From contig JAVZGN010000001.1 in the NCBI GenBank assembly GCA_038872135.1, positions 64,147 to 128,146 on the forward strand: a DNA stretch of 64,000 nt, read 5' to 3'. The DNA is from Candidatus Hadarchaeales archaeon. Lineage in GTDB: Archaea; Hadarchaeota; Hadarchaeia; Hadarchaeales; Hadarchaeaceae. Made by a program: the position numbers and the translations under genes. Within the stretch, counting starts at the first letter, position 1. Every line of letters begins with the position of its first letter. Positions 1 through 52,199 of this stretch are shown in pieces. The notes under the pieces were generated by a model that did no database searches, had not been told where the DNA came from, and saw nothing but the letters and a program-made list of their open reading frames with translations.

Positions 1-1995
1 GGAAAAGTTGAAGAGGTGGACGGCATGAAAACACTCCTGTTGACCTCCCCCCCAAGGAAAGTAGAGCTTCCCCTCCCCGAGCTCAACATCATGAGCTTTG
101 ACATAGAGGTTTACAACCCGGTGGGGACACCCAGGCCGGAAAAAGACCCAATCCTGATGATAAGCTTGGCAGATAACCATGGGCTGAGGAAGGTGATTAC
201 ATGGAAGGAGGGCGCGAAGCCATCATTTGTCGATATCGTTGGAAGCGAGAGGGAGATGGTAGAAAAATTCATGAAGATTCTGAAGGAAAGGAAGGTTGAC
301 ATCCTCCTCGGCTACAACACCGACTTTTTCGACTTCCCCTACCTGATCGAAAGAGCAAGACAGCTGAAGCTGGGCCCAATTTTTGGAAAAGGAGGGATCA
401 CAACTAGAAGGAGAAAATTTGCGACCGCTACAAAACTTAGATCAGCAGTTCACGTTGATCTCTTCGCTGCAGTAAACTTTCTCGCCACGATCGGGACGAT
501 TAGGTTGATCCACTACACCTTGGAAGATGTTTATCGCCACCTCCTCGGAAAAGAAAAACCAGATTTCGAGTTCACCAAGTTTGTGGAGGCCTGGGAGAAG
601 GGGGGGAAGCTCTGGCAGGACCTCCTAGACTACTCCCTCTCAGATGCAGTGGCCACCCTCGAGATCGGGCTGGAGATTCTTCCTCTTTTCATAGAGCTTT
701 CAAGGGCCGTCGGGCAGACCCTTTTTGATGTTACGAGGATGAGCCCCGGGCAGCTGGTGGAGTGGCTCCTCATCTCGAGCGCTCATAGATTCAGGGAGAT
801 GATCCCGGCCAGGCCAGTTGGAGAAGAGTTTGAGGAGAGGGCCATGGAAACCTACACCGGGGCCTATGTCATGGAGCCGGTGAAGGGCCTCCACGAGAAC
901 CTTGTGGTATTTGATTTCAGGTCCCTCTATCCATCAATAATTGTCACCCACAACATCGACCCCTCAACGCTCAATTGCGAGTGCTGCTCCCCCTCGGTAA
1001 AAGTCCCGGAACTTGGACATCACTTCTGCCAGAAGAATAGAGGGTTCATCCCAGCCACCCTTGAAGAAATCCTCAAGGAAAGGCTGGCGCTGAAAGAGGA
1101 GATGAAGAAACATAGAAAAGGCACCAAAGAGTACCAGTCCCTCTACACAAGGCAGTGGGCTTTCAAAATCCTCGCCAACTCCTTCTATGGAATGCTTGGC
1201 TATCCCAGGGCCCGCTGGTACTGCAAAGAGTGTGCGGAAAGCGTCACAAGTTTCGGCCGCCACTACATCCACCAGAGCATAAAGATGGCCGAGGACTTCG
1301 GCTTCAAGGTGATCTATGGAGATACAGATTCTCTTCACTGCAGGCTTGAGGGGAAATCGAAAGAGGATGCTCTCAAATTCCTGGCGGAGGTCAACAGGAA
1401 GCTTCCCGGAGCCCTGGAGCTTGAGCTGGAAGGGTTCTACCCCCGCGGCATCTTCATCACAAAAAAGCGATACGCCCTCATAGATGAGGAGGGAAGAATC
1501 ACTGTCAAAGGGCTGGAGTTCGTTAGGAGGGACTGGGCGGCAATAGCAAAGAAGACCCAGGAGGAGGTCCTCAAGGCCATTCTCAAAGATGGATCAAAGG
1601 AAAAGGCTGCTGAGATCATCCGCGAGACCACTAGAAAAATTTACGAGGGGAAGATAGACCTACAGGATCTCATCATCTACACCCAGCTGAAAATGCCAAT
1701 AGAAAGCTATCGCTCGGTGGGCCCCCATGTTGTCGCAGCGAAACGCTTGCGGAGCACAGGGCGGGAGGTGGAACCGGGGATGATGATCGCTTACGTGGAG
1801 GTGAGGGGGCCAGGGAGCATAAGCGAGAGGGCATATCCTGTGGAGCTATTGGAGGGAAAAAGCTACGACCCGGACTACTATGTCAACAATCAGGTTCTCC
1901 CTGCTGTGATGAGGATAATGGAGGTTCTCGGCTACCGGGAGGATGACCTGAAGTTTGAGAAGGAGAAGCAGGTTGGGCTTGACAGGTTCATGTGA
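1..1995 (+). CDS. polB: Family B DNA polymerase (PolB), 5'-partial; reading frame is open back to window position 1
   Basis: Exo I motif FDIEVY near the N-terminus, motif A DFRSLYPSII, motif B KILANSFYG, motif C YGDTDS. The N-terminal domain expected upstream of Exo I is absent, so the gene is truncated by the window edge. Confidence 0.9.
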   Translation, partial: GKVEEVDGMKTLLLTSPPRKVELPLPELNIMSFDIEVYNPVGTPRPEKDPILMISLADNHGLRKVITWKEGAKPSFVDIVGSEREMVEKFMKILKERKVDILLGYNTDFFDFPYLIERARQLKLGPIFGKGGITTRRRKFATATKLRSAVHVDLFAAVNFLATIGTIRLIHYTLEDVYRHLLGKEKPDFEFTKFVEAWEKGGKLWQDLLDYSLSDAVATLEIGLEILPLFIELSRAVGQTLFDVTRMSPGQLVEWLLISSAHRFREMIPARPVGEEFEERAMETYTGAYVMEPVKGLHENLVVFDFRSLYPSIIVTHNIDPSTLNCECCSPSVKVPELGHHFCQKNRGFIPATLEEILKERLALKEEMKKHRKGTKEYQSLYTRQWAFKILANSFYGMLGYPRARWYCKECAESVTSFGRHYIHQSIKMAEDFGFKVIYGDTDSLHCRLEGKSKEDALKFLAEVNRKLPGALELELEGFYPRGIFITKKRYALIDEEGRITVKGLEFVRRDWAAIAKKTQEEVLKAILKDGSKEKAAEIIRETTRKIYEGKIDLQDLIIYTQLKMPIESYRSVGPHVVAAKRLRSTGREVEPGMMIAYVEVRGPGSISERAYPVELLEGKSYDPDYYVNNQVLPAVMRIMEVLGYREDDLKFEKEKQVGLDRFM

Positions 1996-13901: not shown

Positions 13902-14942
13902 TTGAAGGAGCCAAAATTCATTCAGCTTCCGAGAGAGATCTGGATGGGGCCGGGGGTGCTGAAGGAGACTCCTGGGGCATGTGAGAGGCTAGGGCTCAAG
14001 AAAAAAGCTGTGCTGGTGGCAGATGAAACAACCTATAAAATCGCTGGGGTGAGGGTTGAGAGGCTGCTGGAGAGCCGCGGGATCGATGTTTCTCCTGTGA
14101 TTATCACAAGCGCCACGATAGAGGAAGTGGAGAGGGTTAGGGGAGCCGAGCGCCCAGAGTTCTACATCGGAGTTGGAGGAGGGAAGGCAATAGATGTAGC
14201 GAAGCTGGCTTCATTTCTTGAAAAGGAACCATTCATCTCAATTCCAACGGCAGCTTCCCATGATGGCATTGCCTCATCGAGAGCATCGATAAAAGGGGGA
14301 AAAAAGCCGACTTCTATAGAGACCCATGCCCCTCTAGCCATCATCGCCGACACCCTGGTTATAAAAAAGGCACCCCACCGCCTTCTCGCCGCAGGATGTG
14401 GGGACCTTCTTGCAAACTTCACGGCCGTCTGGGACTGGCAGCTGGCCCATAGAATTAAAGGGGAGCCATACAGCGAGTATGCTGCGACACTATCCCTTGT
14501 GAGCGCTCAGATAGTAGTGGACAATGCGGAGGTGATAAGAAGGCATTCTGAGGAGAGCGTTAGGAAAGTTGTCAAGGCCCTCATCTCAAGCAGTGTGGCG
14601 ATGGCGATTGCTGGAAGCAGCCGCCCGGCAAGCGGGGCTGAGCACCTTTTCAGTCATGCTTTAGACATGGTTGCCGCAAAACCTGCTCTTCATGGGGAGC
14701 AGTGTGGGGTGGGGGCAATAATGATGGCCAAGCTCCATGGGAAGGATTGGAGGAAGATCAAGAAAACACTGGAAACTGTTGGGGCGCCCACAACCGCGGA
14801 GGAGCTTGGAGTCACGGCAGATGAAGTAATAACAGCGCTTGTGTCTGCCTGGAAGATCCGCCCGGAGAGGTACACTGTGCTTAGAAGAGGGCTGGAGAAG
14901 AAAGAGGCCGAGAAGCTTGCGAGAGAAACCGGCGTGATATAG
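13902..14942 (+). CDS. egsA: Glycerol-1-phosphate dehydrogenase [NAD(P)+] (archaeal lipid backbone)
   Basis: Iron-type ADH/DHQS-like fold, GGGKAIDVAK, ~346 aa typical for G1PDH. Confidence 0.75.
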   Translation: MKEPKFIQLPREIWMGPGVLKETPGACERLGLKKKAVLVADETTYKIAGVRVERLLESRGIDVSPVIITSATIEEVERVRGAERPEFYIGVGGGKAIDVAKLASFLEKEPFISIPTAASHDGIASSRASIKGGKKPTSIETHAPLAIIADTLVIKKAPHRLLAAGCGDLLANFTAVWDWQLAHRIKGEPYSEYAATLSLVSAQIVVDNAEVIRRHSEESVRKVVKALISSSVAMAIAGSSRPASGAEHLFSHALDMVAAKPALHGEQCGVGAIMMAKLHGKDWRKIKKTLETVGAPTTAEELGVTADEVITALVSAWKIRPERYTVLRRGLEKKEAEKLARETGVI

Positions 14943-14985
14943 GGAACCTTCCACCTTTTTATTTTTTCACCAGAATTATTTTTCG

Positions 14986-15624
14986 ATGAAGAAAAATCCC
15001 AGGGTTTTGCGGGAGATTCTCTACAGGGTTTATGAGAAGGGGGAGCTCTTCATGACCCAGAAATCTCTGGCGGAGAGCTGTGAGATTTCCCTTGACGCTG
15101 TGAACAGGGTCATCTCCAAGCTCTTCCAGTTTAGGGCAATTGAAAAAAAGCCTTTTGGCTTCAGGGTTGTTGAGCCGAAAAAAATTCTTCTTTACTGGGC
15201 GACCACTAGAAATCTTCAGGCAGACATCGTTTATTCAACCTACTCTCCAGATGCGCCCGAGGAGATAGAGAATGACATGCCCGAGGGCACCATTTTCACA
15301 GCATTTTCCGGCTACAAGAAGAAGTATGGGAGCTGTCCCCAGAGCTATGATGAGGTGCATGTTTATTCTAAAAACCCAGAGGAGATAAAGCGCAGGCATC
15401 CTGAGAGAGAGGCGGGGATTGAAAATATCATTGTTATGAGAATGGACCCCCACCTGGAAAAGCTGAGCGAGAAGTCTGTGCCCCCCATCGCCCAGATTTA
15501 CGTTGATCTATGGCAACTGGGGGGTTCCGCTGCCGAGCGTTGCCTCCTTGCGCTCGACGAAAAGCTGGAGGCGAGATCAACTGAAGCCTTCAAGCAGCTG
15601 ATTGGACTGCTTCCAAAAGCTTGA
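14986..15624 (+). CDS. Winged-helix domain protein of unknown function
   Basis: N-terminal wHTH-like segment LREILYRVYEKGELFMTQKSLAESCEISLDAVNRVISKL. Confidence 0.4.
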   Translation: MKKNPRVLREILYRVYEKGELFMTQKSLAESCEISLDAVNRVISKLFQFRAIEKKPFGFRVVEPKKILLYWATTRNLQADIVYSTYSPDAPEEIENDMPEGTIFTAFSGYKKKYGSCPQSYDEVHVYSKNPEEIKRRHPEREAGIENIIVMRMDPHLEKLSEKSVPPIAQIYVDLWQLGGSAAERCLLALDEKLEARSTEAFKQLIGLLPKA

Positions 15625-15684
15625 GTTCCTAGGATGAGCTAGCTTTAACCTTTTAAACTACTACTACCAATTTAGAAGGAGAAA

Positions 15685-15807
15685 ATGAAAATCGTCTGCC
15701 CAAGATGCAAACACGAGTGGAATTACCGTGGAAAATCAAAATACTACGTCACCTGCCCTCAGTGTCTTAGAAAGATAAAACTTGATGAACCGCCGGGGAG
15801 GAGATGA
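15685..15807 (+). CDS. 40-aa zinc-ribbon protein (absent from the ORF track); stop overlaps the minD-like start
   Basis: MKIVCPRCKHEWNYRGKSKYYVTCPQCLRKIKLDEPPGRR: CPRC...CPQC; SD-like AGGAG 6 nt upstream; TATA-like TTTTAAACT about 30 nt upstream. Confidence 0.5.
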   Translation: MKIVCPRCKHEWNYRGKSKYYVTCPQCLRKIKLDEPPGRR

Positions 15808-16601
15808 TGGTCAGAAGAAGGAGAGGGCTGGTGATGGGCATTTTCTCCGCAAAAGGAGGTGTGGGGAAGACAACCACAGTGGCTAATCTTGGCGCCGCAA
15901 TTTCGCAGAAGTTAAAGGGGAAGGTCATAATCACCGAGACGAACATGACAGCTTCAAACCTAGGGCTTCACCTGGGAATTGTTGACCCGCCGGTAGTAAT
16001 TCAGGATGTGGTTTACGGGAGGGTGAAGATAAGCGATGCGATAATAAAAACTGAGTATGGGCTGCATGTTCTCCCCGGCTCTGTAGCCTACACAGAAGAA
16101 GTCGGCCCGATAGACCTATCCCCGGTGATAGAGGAGCTGAGAAAAAAATACAGCTTGGTTCTGTTGGATACTGCTCCTGGGTTTGCCATGGAAGTGATTG
16201 CCGGGATGAAGGTCTCCGATGAAATCCTCGTCTGCTGCCAGCCCCATGTGCCAGCAATTGCCGGGACCCTTCAGACGTTCAGGATGGCTGACCGCATGAA
16301 GCTCCCCGTCTTTGGTGTTGTCATGACGAGGGTTGCTGGAAAGAGATACGAGATTCCGATAACAGATATCAGGAGAACCCTTGGCTGGCCAACGCTGGTC
16401 CAGATCCCGGAAGATGACATGGTGCCGGAGAGCATCACCAGGGGGGTGCCGGTGGTCATGTATTCTCCAAACTCTCCAGCCGCCGTCGAGTACAGGAAGC
16501 TGGCTCAGATGGTAATATCCCACTTGAGGGCAAGAAAGAGGAAACATTTGGGCGCAAGAAAGAGAAAAACCTCTAAGAGCACCGGTAAAAGGAGAAGGTG
16601 A
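15804..16601 (+). CDS. MinD/ParA-family ATPase with Arg/Lys-rich C-terminal tail
   Basis: Deviant Walker A SAKGGVGKTT; C-terminal tail RARKRKHLGARKRKTSKSTGKRRR. Confidence 0.8.
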   Translation: MMVRRRRGLVMGIFSAKGGVGKTTTVANLGAAISQKLKGKVIITETNMTASNLGLHLGIVDPPVVIQDVVYGRVKISDAIIKTEYGLHVLPGSVAYTEEVGPIDLSPVIEELRKKYSLVLLDTAPGFAMEVIAGMKVSDEILVCCQPHVPAIAGTLQTFRMADRMKLPVFGVVMTRVAGKRYEIPITDIRRTLGWPTLVQIPEDDMVPESITRGVPVVMYSPNSPAAVEYRKLAQMVISHLRARKRKHLGARKRKTSKSTGKRRR

Positions 16602-16613
16602 TGGGGGATAAAA

Positions 16614-17138
16614 TTGTTGTGCGTCCTACTTCTCGCCATCATCACTCCCATCTCAAGGCTGTATGCTCCTCTTCCAGAAGACCTCAGGAAAACTAGAAGA
16701 AAATTTCCTTTAAAAAAGGGTGTGCCGCAGATCCTGGAAGAAAAATCGCGCGAAACATTCAGAGCCCTTCTTAGCCATGGTCACGCCGGGCTCTGGATAA
16801 CGGCCACCCAGCCGGAAGAGGTCAGGAAAAAACACAAGCTTTTTCTCACACCAATTTTATGGTTGACAACCGAGAGAGATGATGAGCTGTCGATTGCTCC
16901 AACCAACCTTGAAAGGATACTGAAGGTTTGCCAGCACTTTCTATCAAATGCCAGAAATCCCGCTATTTTCATAGAATATCCTGAGACGATAATCTCTGCA
17001 AATGGGCTTGAGAAAACAATAGAATTTTTTAAGAAACTCAAGGAGCTGTGCAAGAAGGAAGAGGCCATACTCATCATCCGAGGAGCTGGGCTTGGAAAAA
17101 GAAAAATCCAAGAGATAAATGAGGCTATTTCTGGCTGA
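16614..17138 (+). CDS. Hypothetical protein downstream of the MinD-like ATPase
   Basis: ORF only; hydrophobic N-terminus. Confidence 0.3.
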   Translation: MLCVLLLAIITPISRLYAPLPEDLRKTRRKFPLKKGVPQILEEKSRETFRALLSHGHAGLWITATQPEEVRKKHKLFLTPILWLTTERDDELSIAPTNLERILKVCQHFLSNARNPAIFIEYPETIISANGLEKTIEFFKKLKELCKKEEAILIIRGAGLGKRKIQEINEAISG

Positions 17139-18992: not shown

Positions 18993-19089
18993 GGGCCCGT
19001 GGCTCAGTCTGGTTAGAGCAGCCGACCCCTTTGGGGGGCTGAAGCTCTTAACCGGCAGGTCGGGGGTTCGAATCCCCCCGGGCCCGCCA
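18993..19089 (+). tRNA. tRNA-Lys(CUU) with a ~19-nt intron, CCA encoded
   Basis: Acceptor GGGCCCG/CGGGCCC, D-arm GCTC..GAGC, T-arm GGGGG-TTCGAAT-CCCCC. The mature anticodon arm GCCGG-CUCUUAA-CCGGC forms only after removing ACCCCTTTGGGGGGCTGAA, which sits inside the anticodon stem. Confidence 0.75.
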
Positions 19090-40515: not shown

Positions 40516-40914
40516 ATGGTTGAGGAAGGAATTTATGGCCCGCTGGGATTCACTGAGCCGATTCTTAGAGTTTTGCGGCCGTATATCCGGGTTGAAGAAG
40601 AGGGGGAAGTTTACACAAAACCTGTGCCATGGAAAGTTTTGAAAAAAGTGAAAAAGCTTGTCCCAGAAAAAAACATGGAATATCGGCATGGAAACGCGCC
40701 AAAAGTTTTAGAAATGTTTGGCTTTGGGAAAGAAGGCGTGGAGTATTTGTGCTATATAGTGACGTCTGAGCGACCGGGGGAGAAATTTTCTATCTATGGA
40801 ATTCTCTTCCCGAAGGAAAATCAGCAGCTTTTAAAGGCGATAAAAAGCAAGGCGTTGGGGCCTCCCACACAGGTTTATGAAGAGAGGGGCCTCCTCGCGC
40901 TCTCGTGGGAGTAG
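40516..40914 (+). CDS. Hypothetical protein
   Basis: 132-aa ORF, no recognisable motif. Confidence 0.35.
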   Translation: MVEEGIYGPLGFTEPILRVLRPYIRVEEEGEVYTKPVPWKVLKKVKKLVPEKNMEYRHGNAPKVLEMFGFGKEGVEYLCYIVTSERPGEKFSIYGILFPKENQQLLKAIKSKALGPPTQVYEERGLLALSWE

Positions 40915-40924
40915 CTGCAGCCGT

Positions 40925-41911
40925 TTAATCTCTTCTCAGCTTTTTGCCCCATCTCGTCAGCTGTACGCGTTTACCGGCTCCAAAGCCAGTTCTCCTGATT
41001 ATCCCCTTTGCTTCCAGCCTTTTCATTGTGCGGGAGAGGGTGGCCTTTGGTATCCCGGTTCTCTCACAGATGGTCTTCTGGAGTAGGTTGTCTTCGCGCA
41101 GGAGCTCTTTGGTCACAGCTCTTTCGTGGTCGGTCAAGAGATTGAGGATTTTTTCAACGTCAGCAGAGCTAAGTGGTTCAGGTCTAGTCAGCTCCTGAGG
41201 AATCTCCACTTTTCTGCCAGCAGCCATCTTTACAAGGATTGCGAGAAGGATTGCTACTACAGCACCGATAGGAACGAGAGTCCAATAAGATCCTTCCTGT
41301 TGGGTCCCCTGGCTAGATTCGGAAGGGGCAGGAGGCGGGGAGGAAAGCTGGAAGGTCATCTCCGCCTGTAATCTACTTTCCGATATTCTCACCCATCTGA
41401 GAGATATCGAATCTCCCGAGGATGAGATAGATGAAGGTGAGGGTTCAGAGTGCAGGAGTTTTGCAAATTTTGGGAGAGTGACAGAGATTTTTGACAGCAT
41501 GGGGGAGGTCGTCCACTGGTATCCGATTGCATAGAAAAGCCCATTATCTGAGGCGATCACAGGTTTTGTCAGCTCAATGATTACAGTGTACCTTTCACCC
41601 TCCATCATCCCCGAGCTGAAGAAAAATTTGATCACAGCTGTGTTGTCTTCTCCTCTGTTTTCAAAAATTAAATTTCGGCCAGAATTGTCCCTGATGGAGA
41701 TGGTTGTGGGTCTCCCCATGACGATTATTTCATCCGAGACATTTTCTCCAGAGGCAACCATTGCATACTCGATGGAGATGATTTCCTTTGCAGAGTTTTC
41801 GCCGATTTCAATGGTAGATTCAGCCCAGGTTATCTGAAAAGTAGGCGCCGCTTTTACAGGGATGGTAAGCAGAAAGACAAGTAGCAGAGGAACAATTTTC
41901 TTTTCCATCAT
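40925..41911 (-). CDS. Membrane-spanning one-component regulator: signal peptide, ~200-aa extracytoplasmic domain, one TM helix, cytoplasmic winged-helix (MarR/TrmB-like) DNA-binding domain
   Basis: MMEKKIVPLLLVFLLTIPVKA signal sequence; TM WTLVPIGAVVAILLAILVKMAAG; C-terminal LLTDHERAVTKELLREDNLLQKTICERTGIPKATLSRTMKRLEAKGIIRR wHTH. Start is probably MMEKK rather than 41968. Confidence 0.6.
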   Translation of the reverse strand: MMEKKIVPLLLVFLLTIPVKAAPTFQITWAESTIEIGENSAKEIISIEYAMVASGENVSDEIIVMGRPTTISIRDNSGRNLIFENRGEDNTAVIKFFFSSGMMEGERYTVIIELTKPVIASDNGLFYAIGYQWTTSPMLSKISVTLPKFAKLLHSEPSPSSISSSGDSISLRWVRISESRLQAEMTFQLSSPPPAPSESSQGTQQEGSYWTLVPIGAVVAILLAILVKMAAGRKVEIPQELTRPEPLSSADVEKILNLLTDHERAVTKELLREDNLLQKTICERTGIPKATLSRTMKRLEAKGIIRRTGFGAGKRVQLTRWGKKLRRD

Positions 41912-42033
41912 TTCTATTCTGCAAAAGTTTAAAAAAATATTTTCGTTTTGGGGTAGCCCCCGTTGCAAAAAATGGAACAGGAAGTTTCACATAATTCTTT
42001 TACCCCACTAATTCCGAGAGAAAATTGATATAG

Positions 42034-45000
42034 ATGGCGATAAAAAGCTATTCATGGAGGAATGAAAAGGCACGGGGAGTTTTGTCTCTGCTACTGGTTC
42101 TAGCCCTCTTGGCTTCTCCAGTTGTTTCAGCTGATCACTCCAGCCAAATAACTTTGGAGCCAACGCTAACGCTCGATAATGTAATAACCCTGTATACAAT
42201 CGTGGTTACGAATACAGGCACCGCAGACAACATAGAAAATGTCAGGATATATGTTCCTGAAAACTTTACCTCTATCCAAGATAATGAAAATGCTGGCTGG
42301 ATTTACCTGTATGATGTTGCTTCCAGAACAATAACTTACTGGACAATGGACAATGCAAAAAAGATTGGCCCCGGCTCTAGTAAAATCTTCAAGTTCAAAG
42401 CCACAACCCCAAATCTTTCCTCCCCTCAGCCCCTTTACGTTAATTGGGCATTTTCAACAAAAGATAACTCAGGTTCTTTGTTTGAGGCACTCCCTGTTTC
42501 AGCCACGGTCGTCCCCGCAATGTTTGCATCCACGGGCCACACCGACAGCGGAATCGACGAGAACGGTGATAGCATTTACGAGTATCTTGGGGTGAATTTT
42601 AAGGTGGATGTCGCAACTCCTGGAAAATATTACGTGAGCGCCTCTTTATATGAGAATGAGAATTTCACATGGGTTTCGTGGGCCACCAGTGATCAACTCT
42701 TCCTAGCAGAAGGACAGCAGACAGTTCAGCTGAGATTCAAAAGCAGTGGAATATACAGGCTGAATAATCCGAGCGTCAACTTCCGGATCGAGGCATGGCT
42801 CTACAATGAAAACTGGTGGTACTTACATAACATCTCTTATATTACTGGTACATATTCTTCCGCCAGTTTTGCACCTCCACCTGTCATGTTTAATCCACCT
42901 CACTCTTTCACTCCACCATCGAGCCTGCCAGATTCCAACGGAAACTCATATGCTGACAACCTCCCGGTTAACGTCGGTGTAAAAGTTACGAAAGCCGGCT
43001 ACTACTGGATCCACGGATGGCTGAGCGAAAATGAAAGCGGATATTACATCACGTGGCTGGATTCGCAGAAGATTTATCTGTCCTCGGATACCACCCTCCA
43101 GCTGGCGTTCGACGGGTGCCGCATACGTCAGGCAAAGCGGTCAGGGTTCTACCGAGCGTACTTTAATATCTCTGATGAGAACTGGAACTGGCTTGACAGC
43201 AGTGAGGCAGTTTCAGACACTCAGTACTCTTGGGAGAATTTTGAGCCGCCGGCGGCAAGCTTCAATCCACCCCACAGCTTCGCGATGATAGACAACGACA
43301 AAGACAACAAATTCGACTATCTTGCGGTTGATGTTAAGCTGAGGGTTAACGTCCCGGGGAGGTACTGGCTGAGTGGCAGCTTGTATGAAAATATAACTGG
43401 AAGCTACGTCACATATATGGAGTCAACTTCGCTATCAGCAAACACAGCAGGCCAATACACTGTTCGGGTGCTGTTCGATGGTACGAGAATTCGATCGTCT
43501 GGGATCTCGGGCCACTACAGGGTCGACATGTCGTTATACGATGGCAACTGGAACTGGCTCGAAAGTGATAGCTATGTGGTGGAGAATTACTATTCGTCGG
43601 ATAACTTCGAGCCACTCGGGGCAACGATCACGTCTGTGTACAGCGACGTTGAAGATCTCAACAACAACCAAAAATTCGATTCACTATTAGTGATAGTCAA
43701 TCTAGATGTCAACAAGGCTGGAAATTATTCCGCCCATGGCTATCTTTCAGACAGCAACTGGACGTACGTCGGCTGGAGCCGCGGTGAGAATTATCTGAGT
43801 GGTAATGGGCAAATAACGGTGAGATTTGATGGCAGGGAGATAAGGAAGGCACGCGCAAATGGTCCCTACCAGGTTTACATTTCTCTTTATGAGAAGGATA
43901 CCGGCACGTATCTTGAAGGTTATTCGGGAGGAGTCGGCGCAGACTATTCATGGGAAGACTTCGAGCCCCAAGCGGCTGAAATCCTTTCTGTGGAGTATGG
44001 TGGAACCGAGGACACGAACGGGAACGGGTTTAAGGATTTTCTAGTGGTGAACGTGGTTGAAAATGTAAATGCCGCCGGGTGGTACAGGGTCGGTGGGAAC
44101 CTCTTTGACAATGAGAACTATATGTGGCTTGGCTGGGCAGAAAATTACGTTTACCTGCCAATAGGCGTCCAGACGGTGCAACTAAGACTTGATGGTTCCA
44201 GAATAAGGAAAGCGGGGATTTCCGGCGGTTACAAGGCCTCAGTTTCTTCATACGATGAGTATTGGAATTGGCTTGGGTGGATGGAGAATAATTTGGGGCA
44301 ATTTAATTGCCAAGATTTCGAACCAGGCGGCGTCGAGATACTCTCAATAGTGACATTTGGTGAAAATACCGACGAAGACAGCTACTTCAACTACTTGGTA
44401 GAGAATGTTAATTTAAAGGTAAACAAGCCAGGGAAATACAGGATAACTGCCAATCTCAGGAAGGACTGGAAGTGGATAGATGGGGCTTGGTCTGAGAATG
44501 ATTTGACGACGGACACAACGGTTCAGCTGCGGTTCAGCGGAAGAAATATTTATTCATCAAGGGAAAACGGCCCATATACCTTGGAGGTATGGATTTCCGA
44601 TGAAATGTGGAACCCAGTTACAGATAATTCTGTAGAAGTTGGTGCAGAGTTCACGTATGAAAATTTCCAGCGTCCACCAGCCGTCATCGCTTCAACCGGG
44701 CACACGGACGAAGGAATAGATACAAACAACAATGAGAATTTTGATTTTCTCTACATAGACGTAAAGGTGAATGTTGCCACACCGGGAAAATATCGCCTGA
44801 GCGGTTCTCTCTTCGACAATAACTGGATGTGGATCGACTGGGCAGAGAACATTGTAACATTGGATGCTGGAGTTGGAAAGAGTGTTGGGCTTTCATTTGG
44901 CGGTTACCGCATCCGCAACTCTGGGAGAAGCGGCCCATACATTGTTGAGCTGTTCTTGGATGAGGTAAAAGAAATGGAACCGTTCAGGCCATGGATACCG

Positions 45001-47622
45001 GCGATGGAGAGGACAGTTTACACCACCCGGGCATACATCCCGGAGAACTTTGAAACCGCACCAATAGAATTTCTGCCGTCATTCACGGAGAATGTTGTGG
45101 ACGAGGATGGAGGAGGATATGACTATTTGACTGTAAATGTGAGCGTTAAGGTCACCACTGAAGGAAGATACTACATTGGGGGATCGCTGTTTACCAGCCC
45201 ACTCATTCAGAAAAATATGCCTCCAAGATCGCCTGTTTGGATTACATGGGCGAGCACTGAGGTGGACCTTACGCCCGGGGTTCATTCAATCCCGCTGAGG
45301 TTTAGAGGAGCAGATATAAACAGAAGCGGAGAAAATGGCCCCTATCGGGCAGATATCAATATCTCAGGCTTTGTCGGTGGAAGATGGGATTGGTTTGGGT
45401 CTACCACCTACATCACGGCAGCATACTTTAGTACTCAGTTCAATCCTCCGCCTGTTGTTATCCTTCCGCCGCCCCACGCAGATTACGGTTACGACTCCGA
45501 TGGTGACAATCTGTATGACTTTATAGTGGTGAGGTTCAAGGTGGATGTGAACAAAGCTGGCAGGTATATAATCGGAGGGGATCTTTGGCCGGCAGGGCAT
45601 GCGATGGAGGAAAAGCAGCTAGGGGTTGGTGTTCAGACGGTGGAACTCCGCTTCTCAGCTTCCAAGATTTATGCAAACAAAACGAATGGACCCTACTGGG
45701 CATACTTCAGCATCATGGATGAAAACTGGAAGCCGCTTGGTTGGGGAAATCACCAGACCGGCAATTATAGATACGACCAGTTTGATCCTCCGCGGGTAGG
45801 GCTGGTCCGGCAGGGTCTTGTCTCATCATCTCCAATGGTCCCGCCGCAGGTGAAGATTTCGGACACAGGCATAAACATAGATCCAGAGAACGATAATCTC
45901 TACGATTTCCTGAAGGTGGATGTGAGCGTTAAGGTCATGGAAAATGGGGTCTACACCGTGATGGGGGCGCTATTTGCACAGAACATAGCTGGGAGTCCAC
46001 CCATCGACTGGGCCGAAAATAGACTGACGCTGAGGACCAGCGATAACACTGTTACCCTCCTCTTTAGTGGGTATGGGGTGGTTCAATCTAGGGTGAACGG
46101 CAAAATATACATTGGGCTGGCTATTCTCGATGAGAACGGTGTGTGGCTAGATACTGAGATTACACCCACGAACGCCTCTTATTCTTATGAGCAGTTTGAG
46201 AACACAAAGAGGGCGCGCTTCGCTATAGTCGCAGGGAAATCTGTCCGGCCAAGCGCTGCAGGTGAAACAGTTTTGGTGAATCTAGAAAACACAGATGCTG
46301 AATCGGTTACTGAAGTTGAGTTGAGGGCCAAAAATAACAGGTCGTCGGCCTCGGTCATAAACATAACCGAGCATGAAGAAGCACCTCTCGGGACAAAAGA
46401 CATTACTGGGGAAGAGCTCAAGTATTTCGACATCACGGTTTCAGATGCGCAGAACATAGAAAGCGCCATTATTCATTTCAAGATTCCGAAATCTGTGGTT
46501 AGCCAGCAGAACATCGATGTTAGCACGATAAGACTCAGGCGGGAAAATATTTTAACCGGTACCACAGTTGAGCTGGAAACATGGTTAGAGGGTGAAGATG
46601 CGAATTACTACTACTTCTCGGCCAGAACTCCAGGATTCTCGTTCTTCGTGGTGGTGGGGCAGCTGAGACAGCCTTCACCACCCCCGCCATCCCCAGGACC
46701 ACCCACAGTTGGCCCCTCTCCAGCGACTTTTGAGTTCAGTGTCTTTGAAGTTCCGGATGTTATAAAGATAGGCGAGAAGGCAGTCATAAGCTTTACTATA
46801 AAGAACACTGGGGGGACGGCCGGGACTTACACTGTGATTCTCTCGCTGGACAATGTTGTTCTAGAGAGCAGGACGATAACGCTGGCTCCAGGTGAGAACC
46901 AGCGGGTAAGCTTTGAAGTTATCCCGCCGGCTATAGGGACATTTCTCATTCAAATTGCTGGGCAGACTGCAGAACTCACAGTGCTGCCAGAGTTGATCGT
47001 TTCTCAAGATCTTGTGGCGGTGAGCTTGGAGCCCATTTACATAGACAGGATTTCCGTTGAAACCCCGCTAACACTGAGCTTCACAGAAACTGCGATAACC
47101 AAGTTGACCCTCAGCGTCTGGAAAGAAGTTTCTGGAGTTATTCTGAAGATAAAGCAGTTGAAAGCCCTTCCATCCGAGGTTCCGGTCCCGGAAACACCAG
47201 TTTTTACATACCTTGAAATCACGGCCGAGAAGCTTCCAAGCTCAGACATAAACAATGCTCTGATTTCATTCAAGGTTGAGAAATCCTGGGTAATAAGTGA
47301 AAATATAGCAGAAAATGAGATAGCGCTCCTAAGATATCACTCCGGCGAATGGCAAAAGCTCAGGACAGAGAAACTCGGCGAAGATGATAGATATCTTTAC
47401 TTCACTGCCATCTCCCCAGGCTTCTCAATCTTTGCTATATCTGGGGAAAGGGCGGCTGCCATAACTCCACCCGGCGTTACGCCGACCCTTCCAACCCAGC
47501 CGTTTGCCCCGATACCGTCAATATATCTTGTGGCGATAACAGCGCTGATATTAATTGGTGTAATTCTGGCGGTGGTCTGGAGGTACATCTCTCTAGGAAC
47601 GAAGAGGCTACCAGTGGAGTGA
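42034..47622 (+). CDS. Giant secreted surface protein (1862 aa): signal peptide, DUF11-like N-domain, ten tandem ~115-aa repeats, two PGF-pre-PGF-like domains, a CARDB-like domain, and a C-terminal TM anchor
   Basis: Signal peptide ~aa 1-33. TVTNTG-type DUF11 motif at aa 55-62. Repeats ending in ...YDENWNWL...FEPP (aa ~165-1390). Pro-rich linker PSPPPPSPGPPTVGPSP. CARDB-like TIKNTGGTAGTYTVIL. Two copies of ...YFSARTPGFSFFVV / ...YFTAISPGFSIFAI. C-terminal hydrophobic IYLVAITALILIGVILAVVW followed by RYISLGTKR. Confidence 0.8.
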   Translation: MAIKSYSWRNEKARGVLSLLLVLALLASPVVSADHSSQITLEPTLTLDNVITLYTIVVTNTGTADNIENVRIYVPENFTSIQDNENAGWIYLYDVASRTITYWTMDNAKKIGPGSSKIFKFKATTPNLSSPQPLYVNWAFSTKDNSGSLFEALPVSATVVPAMFASTGHTDSGIDENGDSIYEYLGVNFKVDVATPGKYYVSASLYENENFTWVSWATSDQLFLAEGQQTVQLRFKSSGIYRLNNPSVNFRIEAWLYNENWWYLHNISYITGTYSSASFAPPPVMFNPPHSFTPPSSLPDSNGNSYADNLPVNVGVKVTKAGYYWIHGWLSENESGYYITWLDSQKIYLSSDTTLQLAFDGCRIRQAKRSGFYRAYFNISDENWNWLDSSEAVSDTQYSWENFEPPAASFNPPHSFAMIDNDKDNKFDYLAVDVKLRVNVPGRYWLSGSLYENITGSYVTYMESTSLSANTAGQYTVRVLFDGTRIRSSGISGHYRVDMSLYDGNWNWLESDSYVVENYYSSDNFEPLGATITSVYSDVEDLNNNQKFDSLLVIVNLDVNKAGNYSAHGYLSDSNWTYVGWSRGENYLSGNGQITVRFDGREIRKARANGPYQVYISLYEKDTGTYLEGYSGGVGADYSWEDFEPQAAEILSVEYGGTEDTNGNGFKDFLVVNVVENVNAAGWYRVGGNLFDNENYMWLGWAENYVYLPIGVQTVQLRLDGSRIRKAGISGGYKASVSSYDEYWNWLGWMENNLGQFNCQDFEPGGVEILSIVTFGENTDEDSYFNYLVENVNLKVNKPGKYRITANLRKDWKWIDGAWSENDLTTDTTVQLRFSGRNIYSSRENGPYTLEVWISDEMWNPVTDNSVEVGAEFTYENFQRPPAVIASTGHTDEGIDTNNNENFDFLYIDVKVNVATPGKYRLSGSLFDNNWMWIDWAENIVTLDAGVGKSVGLSFGGYRIRNSGRSGPYIVELFLDEVKEMEPFRPWIPAMERTVYTTRAYIPENFETAPIEFLPSFTENVVDEDGGGYDYLTVNVSVKVTTEGRYYIGGSLFTSPLIQKNMPPRSPVWITWASTEVDLTPGVHSIPLRFRGADINRSGENGPYRADINISGFVGGRWDWFGSTTYITAAYFSTQFNPPPVVILPPPHADYGYDSDGDNLYDFIVVRFKVDVNKAGRYIIGGDLWPAGHAMEEKQLGVGVQTVELRFSASKIYANKTNGPYWAYFSIMDENWKPLGWGNHQTGNYRYDQFDPPRVGLVRQGLVSSSPMVPPQVKISDTGINIDPENDNLYDFLKVDVSVKVMENGVYTVMGALFAQNIAGSPPIDWAENRLTLRTSDNTVTLLFSGYGVVQSRVNGKIYIGLAILDENGVWLDTEITPTNASYSYEQFENTKRARFAIVAGKSVRPSAAGETVLVNLENTDAESVTEVELRAKNNRSSASVINITEHEEAPLGTKDITGEELKYFDITVSDAQNIESAIIHFKIPKSVVSQQNIDVSTIRLRRENILTGTTVELETWLEGEDANYYYFSARTPGFSFFVVVGQLRQPSPPPPSPGPPTVGPSPATFEFSVFEVPDVIKIGEKAVISFTIKNTGGTAGTYTVILSLDNVVLESRTITLAPGENQRVSFEVIPPAIGTFLIQIAGQTAELTVLPELIVSQDLVAVSLEPIYIDRISVETPLTLSFTETAITKLTLSVWKEVSGVILKIKQLKALPSEVPVPETPVFTYLEITAEKLPSSDINNALISFKVEKSWVISENIAENEIALLRYHSGEWQKLRTEKLGEDDRYLYFTAISPGFSIFAISGERAAAITPPGVTPTLPTQPFAPIPSIYLVAITALILIGVILAVVWRYISLGTKRLPVE

Positions 47623-47624
47623 GG

Positions 47625-48869
47625 TCACCTTTTGACCAGTTCCTCCATCTCCATAAACAGCTTCTTAAGGTAGAGATATATGAGATAACCCAAGCAAATG
47701 ACTCCGAAAATAAACATCAGCGATTGCAGGGCCATTCCTCCCTCAGGCCAGAAATGCTCCATCACCGTTCCAGGCTGGACAATGTTGTATAGGCCATGAA
47801 AGAGAATCAGCCCAAAAACATTTCTCGTCCTGTAGTAGGCTATCCCCCACCACAGGGCAATCAAGAAGAGTCCTCCGAGGAAAAAGATACCAGTTGGGCC
47901 AAAGGAAAGGTACCAGAGGTGGAGGGAAGCAAAGAGCGCTGCACTGGCGGCTATTGCTTTGGTCCCTCCGAGCACAGACAGCCTCTCTATCATGAAACCC
48001 CGGAAAACTATTTCTTCTGTGAAAGCAACCGGGAAGAAGAAGGCAAAGCCAAGATAAATGAAATACCAGTCGGCCGAGGCTCCAAAGAACCCCCGCATCA
48101 TTGATTCTGGATTTGCTCCAACAAAAAGCTGCACAACGCTCCAGTAGAAGTAGATGATCACGGTGAAAATTACTGAAAGGGCGAAAACCCAGATGACGCT
48201 GTCGAGCATTTTTTCCCGCTTCACCCCGACAGATGGCCAGAACTTCCTCCCCTCAAACCTAGTTGTGTGGAGGTAGGCTATAGCAAGGGCTGTTGTGAAA
48301 GTTACAGCGTGAGAGAGGACATCGGAGATCTCTCTCCCAGTTCTCCACCGCAGAACCCACGCCGTTTCCACATTCTCCCCTGTGGCGTTGTCAACCATCA
48401 GAAGTTCATGAAAGCCATATGAAAGATTTTCAACGCTTAGGACCACCGGCACCGGTTTATTTTCTCCAGCCTTTAGAGCAACACTGAAATCAGCTCTGGC
48501 ATCGCCAAGTTTTAGGGAATACATCTTTGCCACAGAATTTTCCGAGAGGTTCGAGAAATTGACTGTAATAATTGACAGCAAATTTTCATAGATTGTCATG
48601 GGCTCGTGGTTTTCCACTATATAGATGAGAAGATTATCAATGGGAGGAGGTGCATTTTCCATTTCATAAACAGAAATGGCCTCGCTGCCGTAGGCTGATG
48701 CAACAACGCTGGCAAAAAGCATAGCGCTGAGGACGCAGATGTAAACCACTAACGGCCCAAGCCACCACGGCTCTTTTCCTAGAGCCGGTTTTTCGGTGGG
48801 TCTCGGCAACGGTTTTTTCACAGTTTTCCCGCTACTTTTGGCAGGCATTCGATTTAGATTTGGCATCAT
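47625..48869 (-). CDS. CPBP-family (CAAX protease/Abi) intramembrane metalloprotease with an N-terminal TM plus ~130-aa extracytoplasmic domain
   Basis: CPBP motifs EEIVFR (motif 1), FASLH (motif 2), HGLYN (motif 3) within a polytopic C-terminal half. Confidence 0.7.
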   Translation of the reverse strand: MMPNLNRMPAKSSGKTVKKPLPRPTEKPALGKEPWWLGPLVVYICVLSAMLFASVVASAYGSEAISVYEMENAPPPIDNLLIYIVENHEPMTIYENLLSIITVNFSNLSENSVAKMYSLKLGDARADFSVALKAGENKPVPVVLSVENLSYGFHELLMVDNATGENVETAWVLRWRTGREISDVLSHAVTFTTALAIAYLHTTRFEGRKFWPSVGVKREKMLDSVIWVFALSVIFTVIIYFYWSVVQLFVGANPESMMRGFFGASADWYFIYLGFAFFFPVAFTEEIVFRGFMIERLSVLGGTKAIAASAALFASLHLWYLSFGPTGIFFLGGLFLIALWWGIAYYRTRNVFGLILFHGLYNIVQPGTVMEHFWPEGGMALQSLMFIFGVICLGYLIYLYLKKLFMEMEELVKR

Positions 48870-48885
48870 ACCTTATAATAGACTT

Positions 48886-49908
48886 TCAAAGGGGAACTTC
48901 TTTTGCCATGGTTACGGCAAGGGTCGCCATCTTTGCATAGAAGTTGTCGTCGGCCTGCTCATAGATTACAGAGTTGGGCGAGTCCACTGCATCGTCTGCT
49001 GCTTCTTCGTTTCTCATCACAGGGAGGACGTGGGTCATTATCGCGGGTTTTGCCATGAGGTCGTCGATGTGACGCTTTTCCAGCCTCCAGTTTTTGTACT
49101 TTTGGTAAATTGCTACTTCTCTGTCAACTCCGAATTTCGATGCCCCGACCCGCAGAAACTCTGATGTCCCCCAGCTCCTGGGAAAGACGACATTTGCTCC
49201 CTTCAGCCCCTCCTCGAAGTCATTGACTATTTCAAAGCTTCCTCCAGCATCTTTAGCGTTTTTCTTTGCAGTTTCAACGATTTTCGGGTCGATGTCAAAG
49301 CCCGGTGGGTGGGCCAGCGTCACATCCATCCCAAATCTAGTTGCTATCAGGACTTCTTCCTGAATACTGCAGCGTCCGCGGGGTTTGCTGGAGTATGCCC
49401 AAGTTATTGTGTATTTTTTCCCGCTCAGATTTCCAAGCTTCTTCCTTATCGTCCAGATATCTCCAAGTCCCTGGGTGGGATGGTATGTGCAGTCGGCCAT
49501 GTTGATCACTGGTTTGTCGGAGGCTTCAGCAAACTCCTTCACCACTTTTAACCCAGCCCCATAGACATAGTCAATTGCCTTGTCGAGGATTCTCACACCT
49601 ATTCCATCGCCATAGGAGGCATACATGTGAGCGGTGTCCTTCACTGCTTCTTCCATCCTCGTCGTTGAAACATCGATGAAGGCTGGGTGTCCTCCGAGAA
49701 TCGCAGTTGCGGCCTCAAATGCTCCCCTGGTTCTGGTAGAAGGCGCGTAGAAAATCATGAAGAAATTTTTGCGGTCGAGGATCCTTGGTGGCCTATCTCC
49801 CCTTTTGACTATCTTCTGAAGTTTTTCCGCCACTTTTATCGTGTACTCCAGTTCTTCGATGCTCCAGTCCTGCGTAGTTATGAAATCTCTTCCATAGAGC
49901 TCAACCAT
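48886..49908 (-). CDS. Aspartate/ornithine carbamoyltransferase-family protein (specificity unclear)
   Basis: STRTR carbamoyl-phosphate motif and HPTQ motif; lacks the canonical OTCase HCLP motif. Confidence 0.6.
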   Translation of the reverse strand: MVELYGRDFITTQDWSIEELEYTIKVAEKLQKIVKRGDRPPRILDRKNFFMIFYAPSTRTRGAFEAATAILGGHPAFIDVSTTRMEEAVKDTAHMYASYGDGIGVRILDKAIDYVYGAGLKVVKEFAEASDKPVINMADCTYHPTQGLGDIWTIRKKLGNLSGKKYTITWAYSSKPRGRCSIQEEVLIATRFGMDVTLAHPPGFDIDPKIVETAKKNAKDAGGSFEIVNDFEEGLKGANVVFPRSWGTSEFLRVGASKFGVDREVAIYQKYKNWRLEKRHIDDLMAKPAIMTHVLPVMRNEEAADDAVDSPNSVIYEQADDNFYAKMATLAVTMAKEVPL

Positions 49909-52121: not shown

Positions 52122-52199
52122 GCTCCGGTGGTGTAGCCCGGTCAAACATGCGAGCCTCTCGAGCTCGCGCCCCGGGTTCAAATCCCGGCCGGAGCACCA
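52122..52199 (+). tRNA. tRNA-Glu(CUC), CCA encoded
   Basis: Acceptor GCTCCGG/CCGGAGC (perfect), anticodon arm CGAGC-CUCUCGA-GCUCG, T-arm CCGGG-TTCAAAT-CCCGG. Confidence 0.8.

Follow-up and report, generated by a model that had tools for sequence, protein, structure and literature searches.

A candidate Hadarchaeota surface-protein cassette of a transmembrane regulator, a giant repeat protein and an Rce1-like intramembrane protease

Proteases of the CPBP/Rce1 type, which current classification places among the glutamic intramembrane proteases (bioRxiv 10.1101/2023.06.07.544157), have been described as partners of C-terminally anchored surface proteins, including the predicted archaeal pair MrtA/CGP-CTERM (10.1101/2023.06.07.544157; PMC11980579). 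Cleavage of MYXO-CTERM by MrtX is experimentally established, and MrtJ forms two-gene pairs with a single substrate (PMC11980579; 10.1101/2023.06.07.544157). The motifs EExxxR, FxxxH and HxxxN/D define proteolytically competent CAAX-type proteases, while the non-catalytic CAAX homologues SpdC, LnsB and SpbR have degenerate motifs (PMC12260438). Transmembrane transcription regulators, which carry a DNA-binding domain and at least one TM helix in one polypeptide, have been recorded widely across archaea (PMC10269533), and ArnR/ArnR1 is a studied archaeal case (PMC6396743). The initial annotation of the locus described here had held that no archaeal system was known to couple a transmembrane winged-helix regulator and a CPBP protease to a giant repeat protein. 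This was overstated, as both the regulator type and the pairing of CPBP proteases with surface proteins have precedents, although the literature searched contained neither the exact three-part combination nor the cysteine-free C-terminal tail described below.

The locus lies in a 64,000-nucleotide stretch (the window) from a Candidatus Hadarchaeales MAG. Hadarchaeota are uncultured archaea of the subsurface and hot springs, and we know of nothing reported on their cell envelope. Three genes, here called REG, GIANT and CPBP, stand side by side (Table 1). REG and GIANT diverge from a spacer of 33.6% GC, compared with ~48-50% locally, and CPBP converges on GIANT, the two stops lying 2 nt apart. 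Frames, spacer and convergence are all as first described. Alignment of homologues places the REG start at MMEKK (41911) and discards an upstream TTG; homologues also suggest that CPBP probably starts at M8 (48848), giving 407 aa. Directly upstream of CPBP, on the same strand, is a gene for an OTCase/N-acetylornithine carbamoyltransferase-like protein, whose NCBIfam matches score under the equivalog cut-offs. This gene and CPBP probably form one transcription unit, outside the shared REG/GIANT promoter region, and the carbamoyltransferase is not obviously part of a surface function. As CPBP and GIANT are convergent, they are not co-transcribed.

Table 1. Features of the REG-GIANT-CPBP locus, in window positions
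Feature	Residues (aa)	Position (nt)	Strand	Description
REG		40925-41911	-	type-I transmembrane transcription regulator, 328 aa
REG signal peptide	1-22
REG ecto-domain	23-195	41327-41845		all-beta
REG TM helix	about 207-235	41207-41293		single
REG wHTH	249-323	40943-41167		cytoplasmic, MarR-like
REG/GIANT divergent promoter region		41912-42033	.	122 bp, 33.6% GC; six lineages aligned
REG TATA-like stretch		41929-41945	-	AT-rich, about 18-30 nt upstream of start codon; putative function
Operator-like element		41962-41989	+	GTTGCA-N5-TGGAAC-N5-GTTTCA; three hexamers, alternating orientation, 11-bp phasing
GIANT TATA-like box		41997-42003	+	CTTTTAC (consensus CTWTWAC); conserved column block in six-lineage alignment; putative function
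GIANT		42034-47622	+	C-terminally anchored surface protein, 1862 aa
GIANT signal peptide	1-33
GIANT N-domain	35-170			weakly DUF11-like
GIANT tandem repeats	175-1389	42556-46200		ten, ~120 aa each; Pfam DUF4785_3rd
GIANT PGF-pre-PGF 1	about 1400-1545
GIANT Pro-rich linker				between PGF-pre-PGF 1 and CARDB
GIANT CARDB domain	about 1574-1638
GIANT PGF-pre-PGF 2	1672-1804
GIANT C-terminal TM helix	1830-1849
GIANT C-terminal anchor module		47488-47619	+	LPTQP aa 1819-1823; PS-IYLV + TM aa 1830-1849; WRYISLGTKR aa 1849-1858
CPBP		47625-48869	-	Rce1-like glutamic intramembrane protease, 414 aa
CPBP N-tail				basic, cytoplasmic
CPBP TM1	37-58
CPBP ecto-domain	62-177	48339-48686		beta-sandwich, about 115 aa
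CPBP core	179-413			7-TM
CPBP catalytic motifs				EExxxR 285-290; FxxxH 313-317; HxxxN 358-362
Carbamoyltransferase gene		48886-49908	-	Pfam OTCace_N/OTCace

Because the three genes adjoin in many relatives and come with a conserved control site and a conserved anchor tail, they probably function jointly. We favour, with roughly even confidence, the explanation that the locus is a cassette specific to the Hadarchaeota lineage and devoted to the production and handling of a single large surface protein. In this cassette REG would control GIANT, and CPBP would cleave or dock the GIANT anchor. Such a cassette offers candidates for a major surface or adhesion protein of Hadarchaeota, for an operator together with its membrane-bound regulator, and for the natural substrate of a prokaryotic CPBP protease. 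To our knowledge, very few DNA sites are established for archaeal transmembrane regulators, and for most CPBP-family members we know of no physiological target.

GIANT would be exported by Sec and held by its C-terminal TM helix, with its ten beta-sandwich repeats displayed outside the cell, and would thus be an adhesin-like or envelope protein. A Pfam search with a single repeat found no family, and no sequence relatives of GIANT were found among solved structures. Its two PGF-pre-PGF domains match TIGR04213 (162.1 bits, cut-off 28). In archaeal surface proteins such domains normally precede a PGF-CTERM anchor. GIANT shares them with the PGF-CTERM substrates of archaeosortase A, but has no detectable PGF-CTERM at its extreme C-terminus; downstream of the PGF motif stand instead a linker, the PTxP motif and a TM tail of another kind, which ends in WRY. 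The consensus of this tail is PTxP...TM...WRY(I/L/V)S, with PTxP in 8/9 aligned tails, its T and second P in 9/9, and WR invariant. Cys is absent from the tail in every one of at least nine lineages, and neither the whole of GIANT nor four isolated tails (E<=10) matched an NCBIfam CTERM model. When 1.84 Mb were scanned in six frames with a regex, the tail turned up solely at the C-termini of genes convergent with CPBP, and it was confirmed in L136 and L137 also. A near-match in L117, on the other strand and unrelated, was taken as chance. Mean identity is 49% in the tail and 44% in the adjacent PGF-pre-PGF domain, so the tail is the more conserved by a small margin only.

Synteny bears out the grouping of the three genes, whose recurrence rules out random juxtaposition. 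The full triad, divergent at REG/GIANT and convergent at GIANT/CPBP, is found in four diverged lineages (the window with L001 and L002, L006, L126 and L132), among which CPBP is 44-52% and REG 34-40% identical. The divergent REG and GIANT are present in L003, and L128 has the operator-like element, GIANT and CPBP. The convergent GIANT-CPBP pair occurs in ~12 loci (L005, L006, L007, L125-L128, L130, L132, L134, L136 and L137), its two genes overlapping by up to 11 nt or lying up to 64 nt apart. Alignment scans of genomes and metagenomes with CPBP returned mostly generic EExxxR matches and, as relatives, only L004-L009 and L071; the other locus contexts were taken from contigs encoding homologues. 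The short, distant CPBPs of L008, L009 and L071, which have housekeeping genes around them and no GIANT, were treated as another subfamily and left out.

All the loci are from a single phylum, and their housekeeping proteins share 62-84% identity, so part of the synteny could be inherited order. REG and GIANT could then be the sole functional unit, with CPBP a protease for housekeeping or for other substrates that belongs with the carbamoyltransferase. The linkage of CPBP to the carbamoyltransferase gene is as tight as that to GIANT: the adjacency is kept in 11 loci, co-directionally and with a gap of 5-43 nt, and CPBP is convergent to GIANT. L004 keeps a CPBP beside a different, tail-less surface protein and a radical-SAM/SPASM gene, and the short CPBP of L133 has no GIANT on its 3' side. 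Against such a housekeeping role, L007 and L136 have lost the carbamoyltransferase neighbour but retain a tail-bearing GIANT homologue, and the GIANT-CPBP pair persists while the flanking DNA differs or is rearranged between loci. In L134, moreover, the CPBP neighbour has an unrelated body of PPC-like repeats yet carries the same C-terminal module, so that the tail is conserved and the body is not. We regard separate employment of CPBP as rather unlikely. The proposal of a three-gene unit stands as far as recurrent synteny goes, but CPBP is convergent and likely linked to the carbamoyltransferase, and REG is missing from L007 and L125, where GIANT and CPBP are present.

CPBP scores 56.4 bits with PF02517 (cut-off 22.4), and its model has the fold of an Rce1-type helical bundle, matching SpdC and MmRce1, SpdC best. 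A Pfam search found no family for its ecto-domain, and no sequence relatives of the CPBP family were found among solved structures. E285, E286 and R290, F313 and H317, and H358 and N362 are invariant in 19 homologues, and from these intact motifs CPBP is predicted to be catalytically competent. The label of metalloprotease given to it initially is outdated, CPBP/Rce1 enzymes being glutamic intramembrane proteases (bioRxiv 10.1101/2023.06.07.544157). In SpdC-SagB of S. aureus, as here, a CPBP-fold polytopic protein is found with a single-pass anchored extracytoplasmic protein, although SagB is anchored by its N-terminus and GIANT by its C-terminus. CPBP might by analogy be a non-proteolytic scaffold or chaperone that positions or stabilises the GIANT anchor, as SpdC holds the SagB TM helix. 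We consider this unlikely: SpdC, with its scaffold role, has degenerate catalytic motifs, as do other non-catalytic homologues (PMC12260438), whereas CPBP keeps all three, invariant in 19/19. Many prokaryotic CPBP genes have also been tied historically to bacteriocin loci (10.1101/2023.06.07.544157), which would make CPBP an immunity or 'Abi' protein unrelated to both neighbours. That reading is highly improbable, as none of the loci showed genes for small peptides or bacteriocins, the locus lies in a housekeeping region, and both the CPBP family and its synteny are conserved in the lineage.

In the favoured cassette, CPBP would probably be expressed constitutively with the upstream carbamoyltransferase gene, and would recognise the GIANT anchor (PTxP-TM-WRY) in the membrane and cleave it for maturation, sorting or shedding; the two would therefore be a dedicated enzyme-substrate pair comparable to MrtJ/JDVT-CTERM. 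As in that pair, in MrtX/MYXO-CTERM and in the predicted archaeal MrtA/CGP-CTERM, a CPBP-family enzyme adjoins or co-occurs with a Sec-exported protein, and GIANT, like the Mrt substrates, ends in a tripartite C-terminus of short motif, TM helix and basic cluster (10.1101/2023.06.07.544157; PMC11980579). Adjacency of enzyme and signal protein, one of the marks of myxosortases, is seen in ~12 loci, and the tail only there within the 1.84 Mb scanned. There are several differences. First, all four described Mrt signals have an invariant, presumably lipidated Cys, which the GIANT tail lacks. Second, CPBP scores far below the cut-offs of the Mrt models (MrtJ NF033192, 21.3 bits versus 75; Mrt_core NF040914, 18.4 versus 100) and has an extra N-terminal TM helix and a beta-sandwich ecto-domain. 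Third, GIANT and CPBP are convergent, with a transmembrane regulator attached, and we infer the cleavage. It is possible, though we hold this only tentatively, that PTxP-TM-WRY(I/L/V)S is an undescribed Cys-independent sorting or maturation signal for surface proteins of archaea, cleaved by a dedicated ecto-domain CPBP, with its substrate placed under the surface-sensing REG through the three-hexamer operator, as a self-contained sense-regulate-display-process unit. If the Cys-less tail is cleaved, CPBP-dependent sorting would reach beyond signals with a lipidated Cys, and a second lineage of archaea would be added to it.

REG has the topology initially predicted, an ecto-domain, one TM helix and a cytoplasmic winged helix. 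Its C-terminal domain matches Pfam MarR_2 (37.9 bits, cut-off 27) and also HTH_24, and its N-terminal ecto-domain, for which a Pfam search found no family, has a ribophorin-I/M1-aminopeptidase-N-domain-like fold. The AF2 model has a pLDDT of 77 overall, 85-95 in both domains and low in the TM/linker. While the winged helix agrees with the MarR HMM and fold, REG departs from the MarR layout of a soluble homodimer of ~140-150 aa with N-/C-terminal dimerisation helices around the wHTH. It fits the definition of a transmembrane transcription regulator (Demey et al. 2023) and belongs to that class, already known as common in archaea. Like ArnR/ArnR1 of Sulfolobus acidocaldarius and the bacterial ToxR/CadC types, REG would be a membrane-resident one-component regulator; those proteins control cell-surface-structure genes, and REG is predicted to do likewise with GIANT (PMC6396743; PMC10269533). 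The domain order is reversed: ArnR has an N-terminal HTH and C-terminal TM helices, and in ToxR/CadC an OmpR-type wHTH at the N-terminus is joined to a periplasmic sensor at the C-terminus, whereas REG begins with a cleaved signal peptide and the ecto-domain and has its MarR-like wHTH at the C-terminal end.

The recognition-helix stretch of REG is near-invariant (8/9 residues in one homologue alignment, 7/9 in another), while the remainder is 34-54% identical in the same two alignments. Bacterial membrane-tethered regulators are often under the control of intramembrane proteases, and REG is single-pass with a cytoplasmic DNA-binding domain. CPBP might then cut REG, freeing the winged helix on a surface signal and switching GIANT on or off by regulated intramembrane proteolysis. 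Both proteins bear ecto-domains, and L007, whose CPBP is the only short one lacking an ecto-domain to stand beside a GIANT, is also without REG. However, the TM helix and juxtamembrane linker are the least conserved region of REG in the homologue alignment, which disfavours REG as a conserved intramembrane substrate; L007 and L125 keep CPBP and GIANT without REG; and transmembrane regulators can work while membrane-bound (PMC10269533; PMC6396743). Proteolysis of REG seems to us quite unlikely. The ecto-domains of REG and CPBP and the GIANT N-domain have no mutual sequence similarity, so sensing of GIANT by REG through a shared domain is unsupported.

In the favoured cassette, the extracytoplasmic beta-domain of REG would sense something at the cell surface, and its winged helix, probably as a dimer or higher oligomer, would bind the three-hexamer operator abutting the GIANT BRE/TATA. 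From the membrane, REG would control GIANT and probably its own gene; we infer the DNA binding, the direction of regulation and the sensed signal alike. Activation is the more likely mode, as the operator lies upstream of the GIANT TATA box. The regulatory role first suggested for the shared intergenic region agrees with the conserved operator-like element that it contains. This element, with the consensus GTTKCA-N5-TGRAAC-N5-GTTYCA, is found in 6/6 lineages with a visible upstream region. In the six-lineage alignment the hexamer core positions are invariant, with one variable position per hexamer, while the flanking DNA is poorly conserved. Across 135 loci (about 1.9 Mb) the exact pattern is confined to REG-GIANT intergenic regions, and the 64-kb window holds no second match even when 2 mismatches are allowed (0.01 matches expected). 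The GIANT TATA-like box follows the third hexamer at a distance of 7 nt and precedes the ATG by ~31 nt. On the REG side, the closeness of the TATA-like stretch to the start codon suggests a leaderless or very short-leader mRNA, and AT-rich blocks are found at the equivalent position in L006, L126 and L132.

The initial annotation described three open reading frames, and all three lie exactly where it put them: a predicted transmembrane winged-helix regulator gene (REG), a large repeat-rich surface protein gene (GIANT) divergent from it, and a predicted intramembrane protease gene (CPBP) convergent with GIANT. REG and CPBP are 100% identical to annotated proteins of Candidatus Hadarchaeales MAGs (GCA_038874375.1 and GCA_038883755.1), indicating that the window is archaeal. 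The surroundings of the cassette are of housekeeping type: one flank carries SecY-adk-EMC3/YidC-like-cmk-CBF5 and a 132-aa orphan, and the other a carbamoyltransferase gene (OTC), Trm5/Taw22, tRNAs and an ArsB-like permease. As the orphan, which has no match in Pfam or NCBIfam, is seen only in the same species (loci L001 and L002), it lies outside the conserved block. The length of the tRNA-Lys would accommodate an intron, and the tRNA-Glu overlaps the upstream end of a mechanically listed metallophosphoesterase ORF, whose TTG start is therefore probably wrong.

Features of the cassette and its surroundings (window positions)
Feature	Position	Strand	Details
tRNA-Lys-CTT	18993-19089		97 nt
132-aa ORF between CBF5 and REG	40516-40914	+	stop 10 nt from REG stop
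REG	40925-41911	-	start MMEKK, set by homologue alignment
Operator-like element GTTKCA-N5-TGRAAC-N5-GTTYCA	41962-41989		six-lineage conservation
TATA-like box CTWTWAC	41997-42003		six-lineage conservation; GIANT ATG at 42034
GIANT	42034-47622	+	1862 aa
CPBP	47625-48869	-	PF02517 match
OTC (OTCase / N-acetylornithine carbamoyltransferase-like)	48886-49908		NCBIfam scores below equivalog cut-offs
tRNA-Glu-CTC	52122-52199		
tRNA-Leu-TAA	54678-54766		

Loci of hadarchaeotal relatives (L numbers) were gathered through the CPBP family and exact-protein look-ups and then mapped by tblastn. Synteny, the check proposed in the initial annotation, proved positive, with REG<->GIANT-><-CPBP present in the window species, L006, L126 and L132 at 44-52% (CPBP) and 34-40% (REG) identity to the window proteins. 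REG<->GIANT is visible up to the contig end in L003, and the convergent GIANT-CPBP pair is also found in L005, L007, L125, L127, L128, L130, L134, L136 and L137. The GIANT and CPBP stop codons range from an 11-nt overlap to 64 nt apart, and neighbours outside the block vary by locus (Trm5, AAA_14 ATPases, ABC transporters, a Mo-hydroxylase operon, a restriction-modification methylase, radical-SAM genes). REG is absent from L007, and an IS takes its place in L125.

In most loci CPBP lies 5-43 nt 3' of a same-strand carbamoyltransferase gene (equivalents in L004-L006, L125, L126, L128, L130, L132, L134 and L137), so the two are probably co-transcribed; no functional reason is apparent for coupling an arginine-pathway-type enzyme to a membrane protease. 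One alternative is that CPBP is a housekeeping gene merely inherited beside GIANT. The strongest argument that their adjacency is selected comes from L007 (IS element and acetyl-CoA synthetase upstream of CPBP) and L136 (thymidylate kinase upstream), which lose the carbamoyltransferase link and keep the GIANT homologue. Two loci depart from the pattern around CPBP: L133 has a short CPBP with no GIANT at its 3' side, and L004 (9680-14853; Hadesarchaea MAG; slot CBF5 ... CPBP-OTC) keeps the slot and CPBP but encodes a different, Gly-rich surface protein of 1358 aa, with PGF-pre-PGF-like and CARDB-like parts and a different tail, and a TIGR04084 (AF0577-type) radical SAM/SPASM gene between it and CPBP.

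Alignment of the REG-GIANT intergenic region from six lineages reveals poorly conserved DNA except for the operator-like element, whose three hexamers, set at 11-bp intervals, switch orientation from one to the next, and a TATA-like box 7-8 nt 3' of it. Among 135 loci scanned, the exact pattern occurs once per REG-GIANT intergenic region and nowhere else; L128 carries it though REG lies past the contig end. It is unique in the 64-kb window even at two mismatches, with 0.01 matches expected. REG is predicted to bind the element. The putative operator lies immediately 5' of the GIANT BRE/TATA, a position that would fit activation of GIANT.

REG begins with a Sec-type signal peptide, after which come an all-beta ecto-domain (aa 23-195), a single TM and, at the C-terminus, a winged helix (MarR_2, 37.9 bits); confidence in the AF2 model is high for both domains. 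In a full HMMER scan covering 1.84 billion representatives, 1042 relatives passed E<=1e-3 and 109 passed E<=1e-10. Many of them have 300-350 aa and the same ecto-TM-wHTH layout, which assigns REG to the transmembrane transcription regulators, a broad class reported to average about four members per archaeal genome (PMC10269533). The recognition-helix stretch I287-T295 is nearly invariant (8/9 residues in one alignment, 7/9 in another), while the remainder diverges.

In GIANT, a signal peptide precedes an N-domain that weakly resembles DUF11 and a tandem array of ten repeats (about 120 aa each; aa 175-1389), all starting with the motif D-x-[DN]-x-[DN]...[YF]D[YF]L. There follow PGF-pre-PGF, a proline-rich linker, CARDB, a second PGF-pre-PGF and, as C-terminal anchor, a TM; PDB contains no sequence relatives of the protein. 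All CPBP-convergent genes end ...PGFS.FAV.G - linker - (L/M)PTxP - ~6 aa - PP.Y(L/V)V - TM - (I/V/L)WR(Y/K)(I/L/V/M)(S/A).G(T/S/A/P)(K/R)... Scanning 1.84 Mb in six frames with a regex located this tail only at those ends, plus one near-match in L117, unrelated, on the opposite strand and taken as chance. L134 bears the same tail on a 568-aa protein with a different body of PPC-like repeats. As the tail exceeds the PGF-pre-PGF domain before it only modestly in conservation (49% vs 44%), the conserved unit is the whole C-terminal module. The tail is devoid of Cys, and none of the described CTERM sorting models matches it.

CPBP opens with a basic cytoplasmic N-tail and TM1, which lead into a beta-sandwich ecto-domain (about 115 aa) and then a core of seven helices. 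Initially called a metalloprotease, it belongs to a family now regarded as glutamic proteases (10.1101/2023.06.07.544157). Its motifs EExxxR (285-290), FxxxH (313-317) and HxxxN (358-362), by which CAAX-type proteases with activity can be told apart from non-catalytic homologues (PMC12260438), are invariant across 19 homologues; these intact motifs disfavour a SpdC-like non-proteolytic scaffold for the GIANT anchor (10.1101/2020.05.21.109470). Intramembrane proteolysis of REG by CPBP is likewise disfavoured, since the REG TM and linker, in contrast to the GIANT tail, are the least conserved part of REG, and some loci lack REG. A role for CPBP as an immunity protein is a further rival. The evidence best supports a two-link cassette, in which REG would control GIANT, and probably its own gene, from the membrane through the operator, and CPBP, catalytically intact by its motifs, would act on the GIANT anchor. 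The closest precedents for the latter are CPBP sorting enzymes: MrtX, with demonstrated cleavage of MYXO-CTERM (PMC11980579), and MrtJ, which forms two-gene neighbourhoods with a single JDVT-CTERM substrate (10.1101/2023.06.07.544157). However, the window CPBP scores far under the HMM cut-offs of the Mrt families and falls outside them, and the GIANT tail lacks the invariant Cys of their substrate signals. The sense-regulate-display-process unit proposed initially is supported in part: the genes make up a conserved unit with a clear cis-element, the processing step is putative, and every component is of a known kind. The literature searched held no description of the three-gene combination, the operator or the Cys-less tail.

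Several loci show further variation. L005 (11262-17377) and L006 (3468-12235) carry two tandem GIANT paralogues (about 1170 and 1760 aa) between REG and CPBP, each with the conserved tail. In the sister MAG GCA_038874375.1, GIANT (L001 3823-9217) falls into two ORFs of 1264 and 509 aa, and SecY and adk are split as well, probably through assembly frameshifts and not biology; apparent frameshifts also affect the GIANT homologues of L003, L125 and L134. In L007 (Hadarchaeum sp., 14169-16617), five small genes, with N-termini resembling class-III (type IV pilin-like) signal peptides, take the place of REG, divergent from a GIANT homologue without the N-domain, and an IS-type transposase adjoins a CPBP without the ecto-domain. 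In L136 (1717-3421), the genes ahead of CPBP encode a Peptidase_M50 of the site-2-protease type and thymidylate kinase, the tmk stop overlapping the CPBP start. In L130 (1-5298), a few kb from OTC-CPBP, Trm5 has as its neighbour a 5536-aa gene call (CBM96, LTD and Big_5 domains; C-terminus outside the locus). Upstream of OTC, L126 (3133-8800) has a second surface-related set: a CARDB/NPCBM_assoc protein, two ABC transporter pairs, a 285-aa protein in which a PGF-pre-PGF-like region shares 27% identity with GIANT aa 1658-1805, and a TrmB/DUF7343 wHTH protein of 168 aa (39% identity to the REG wHTH).
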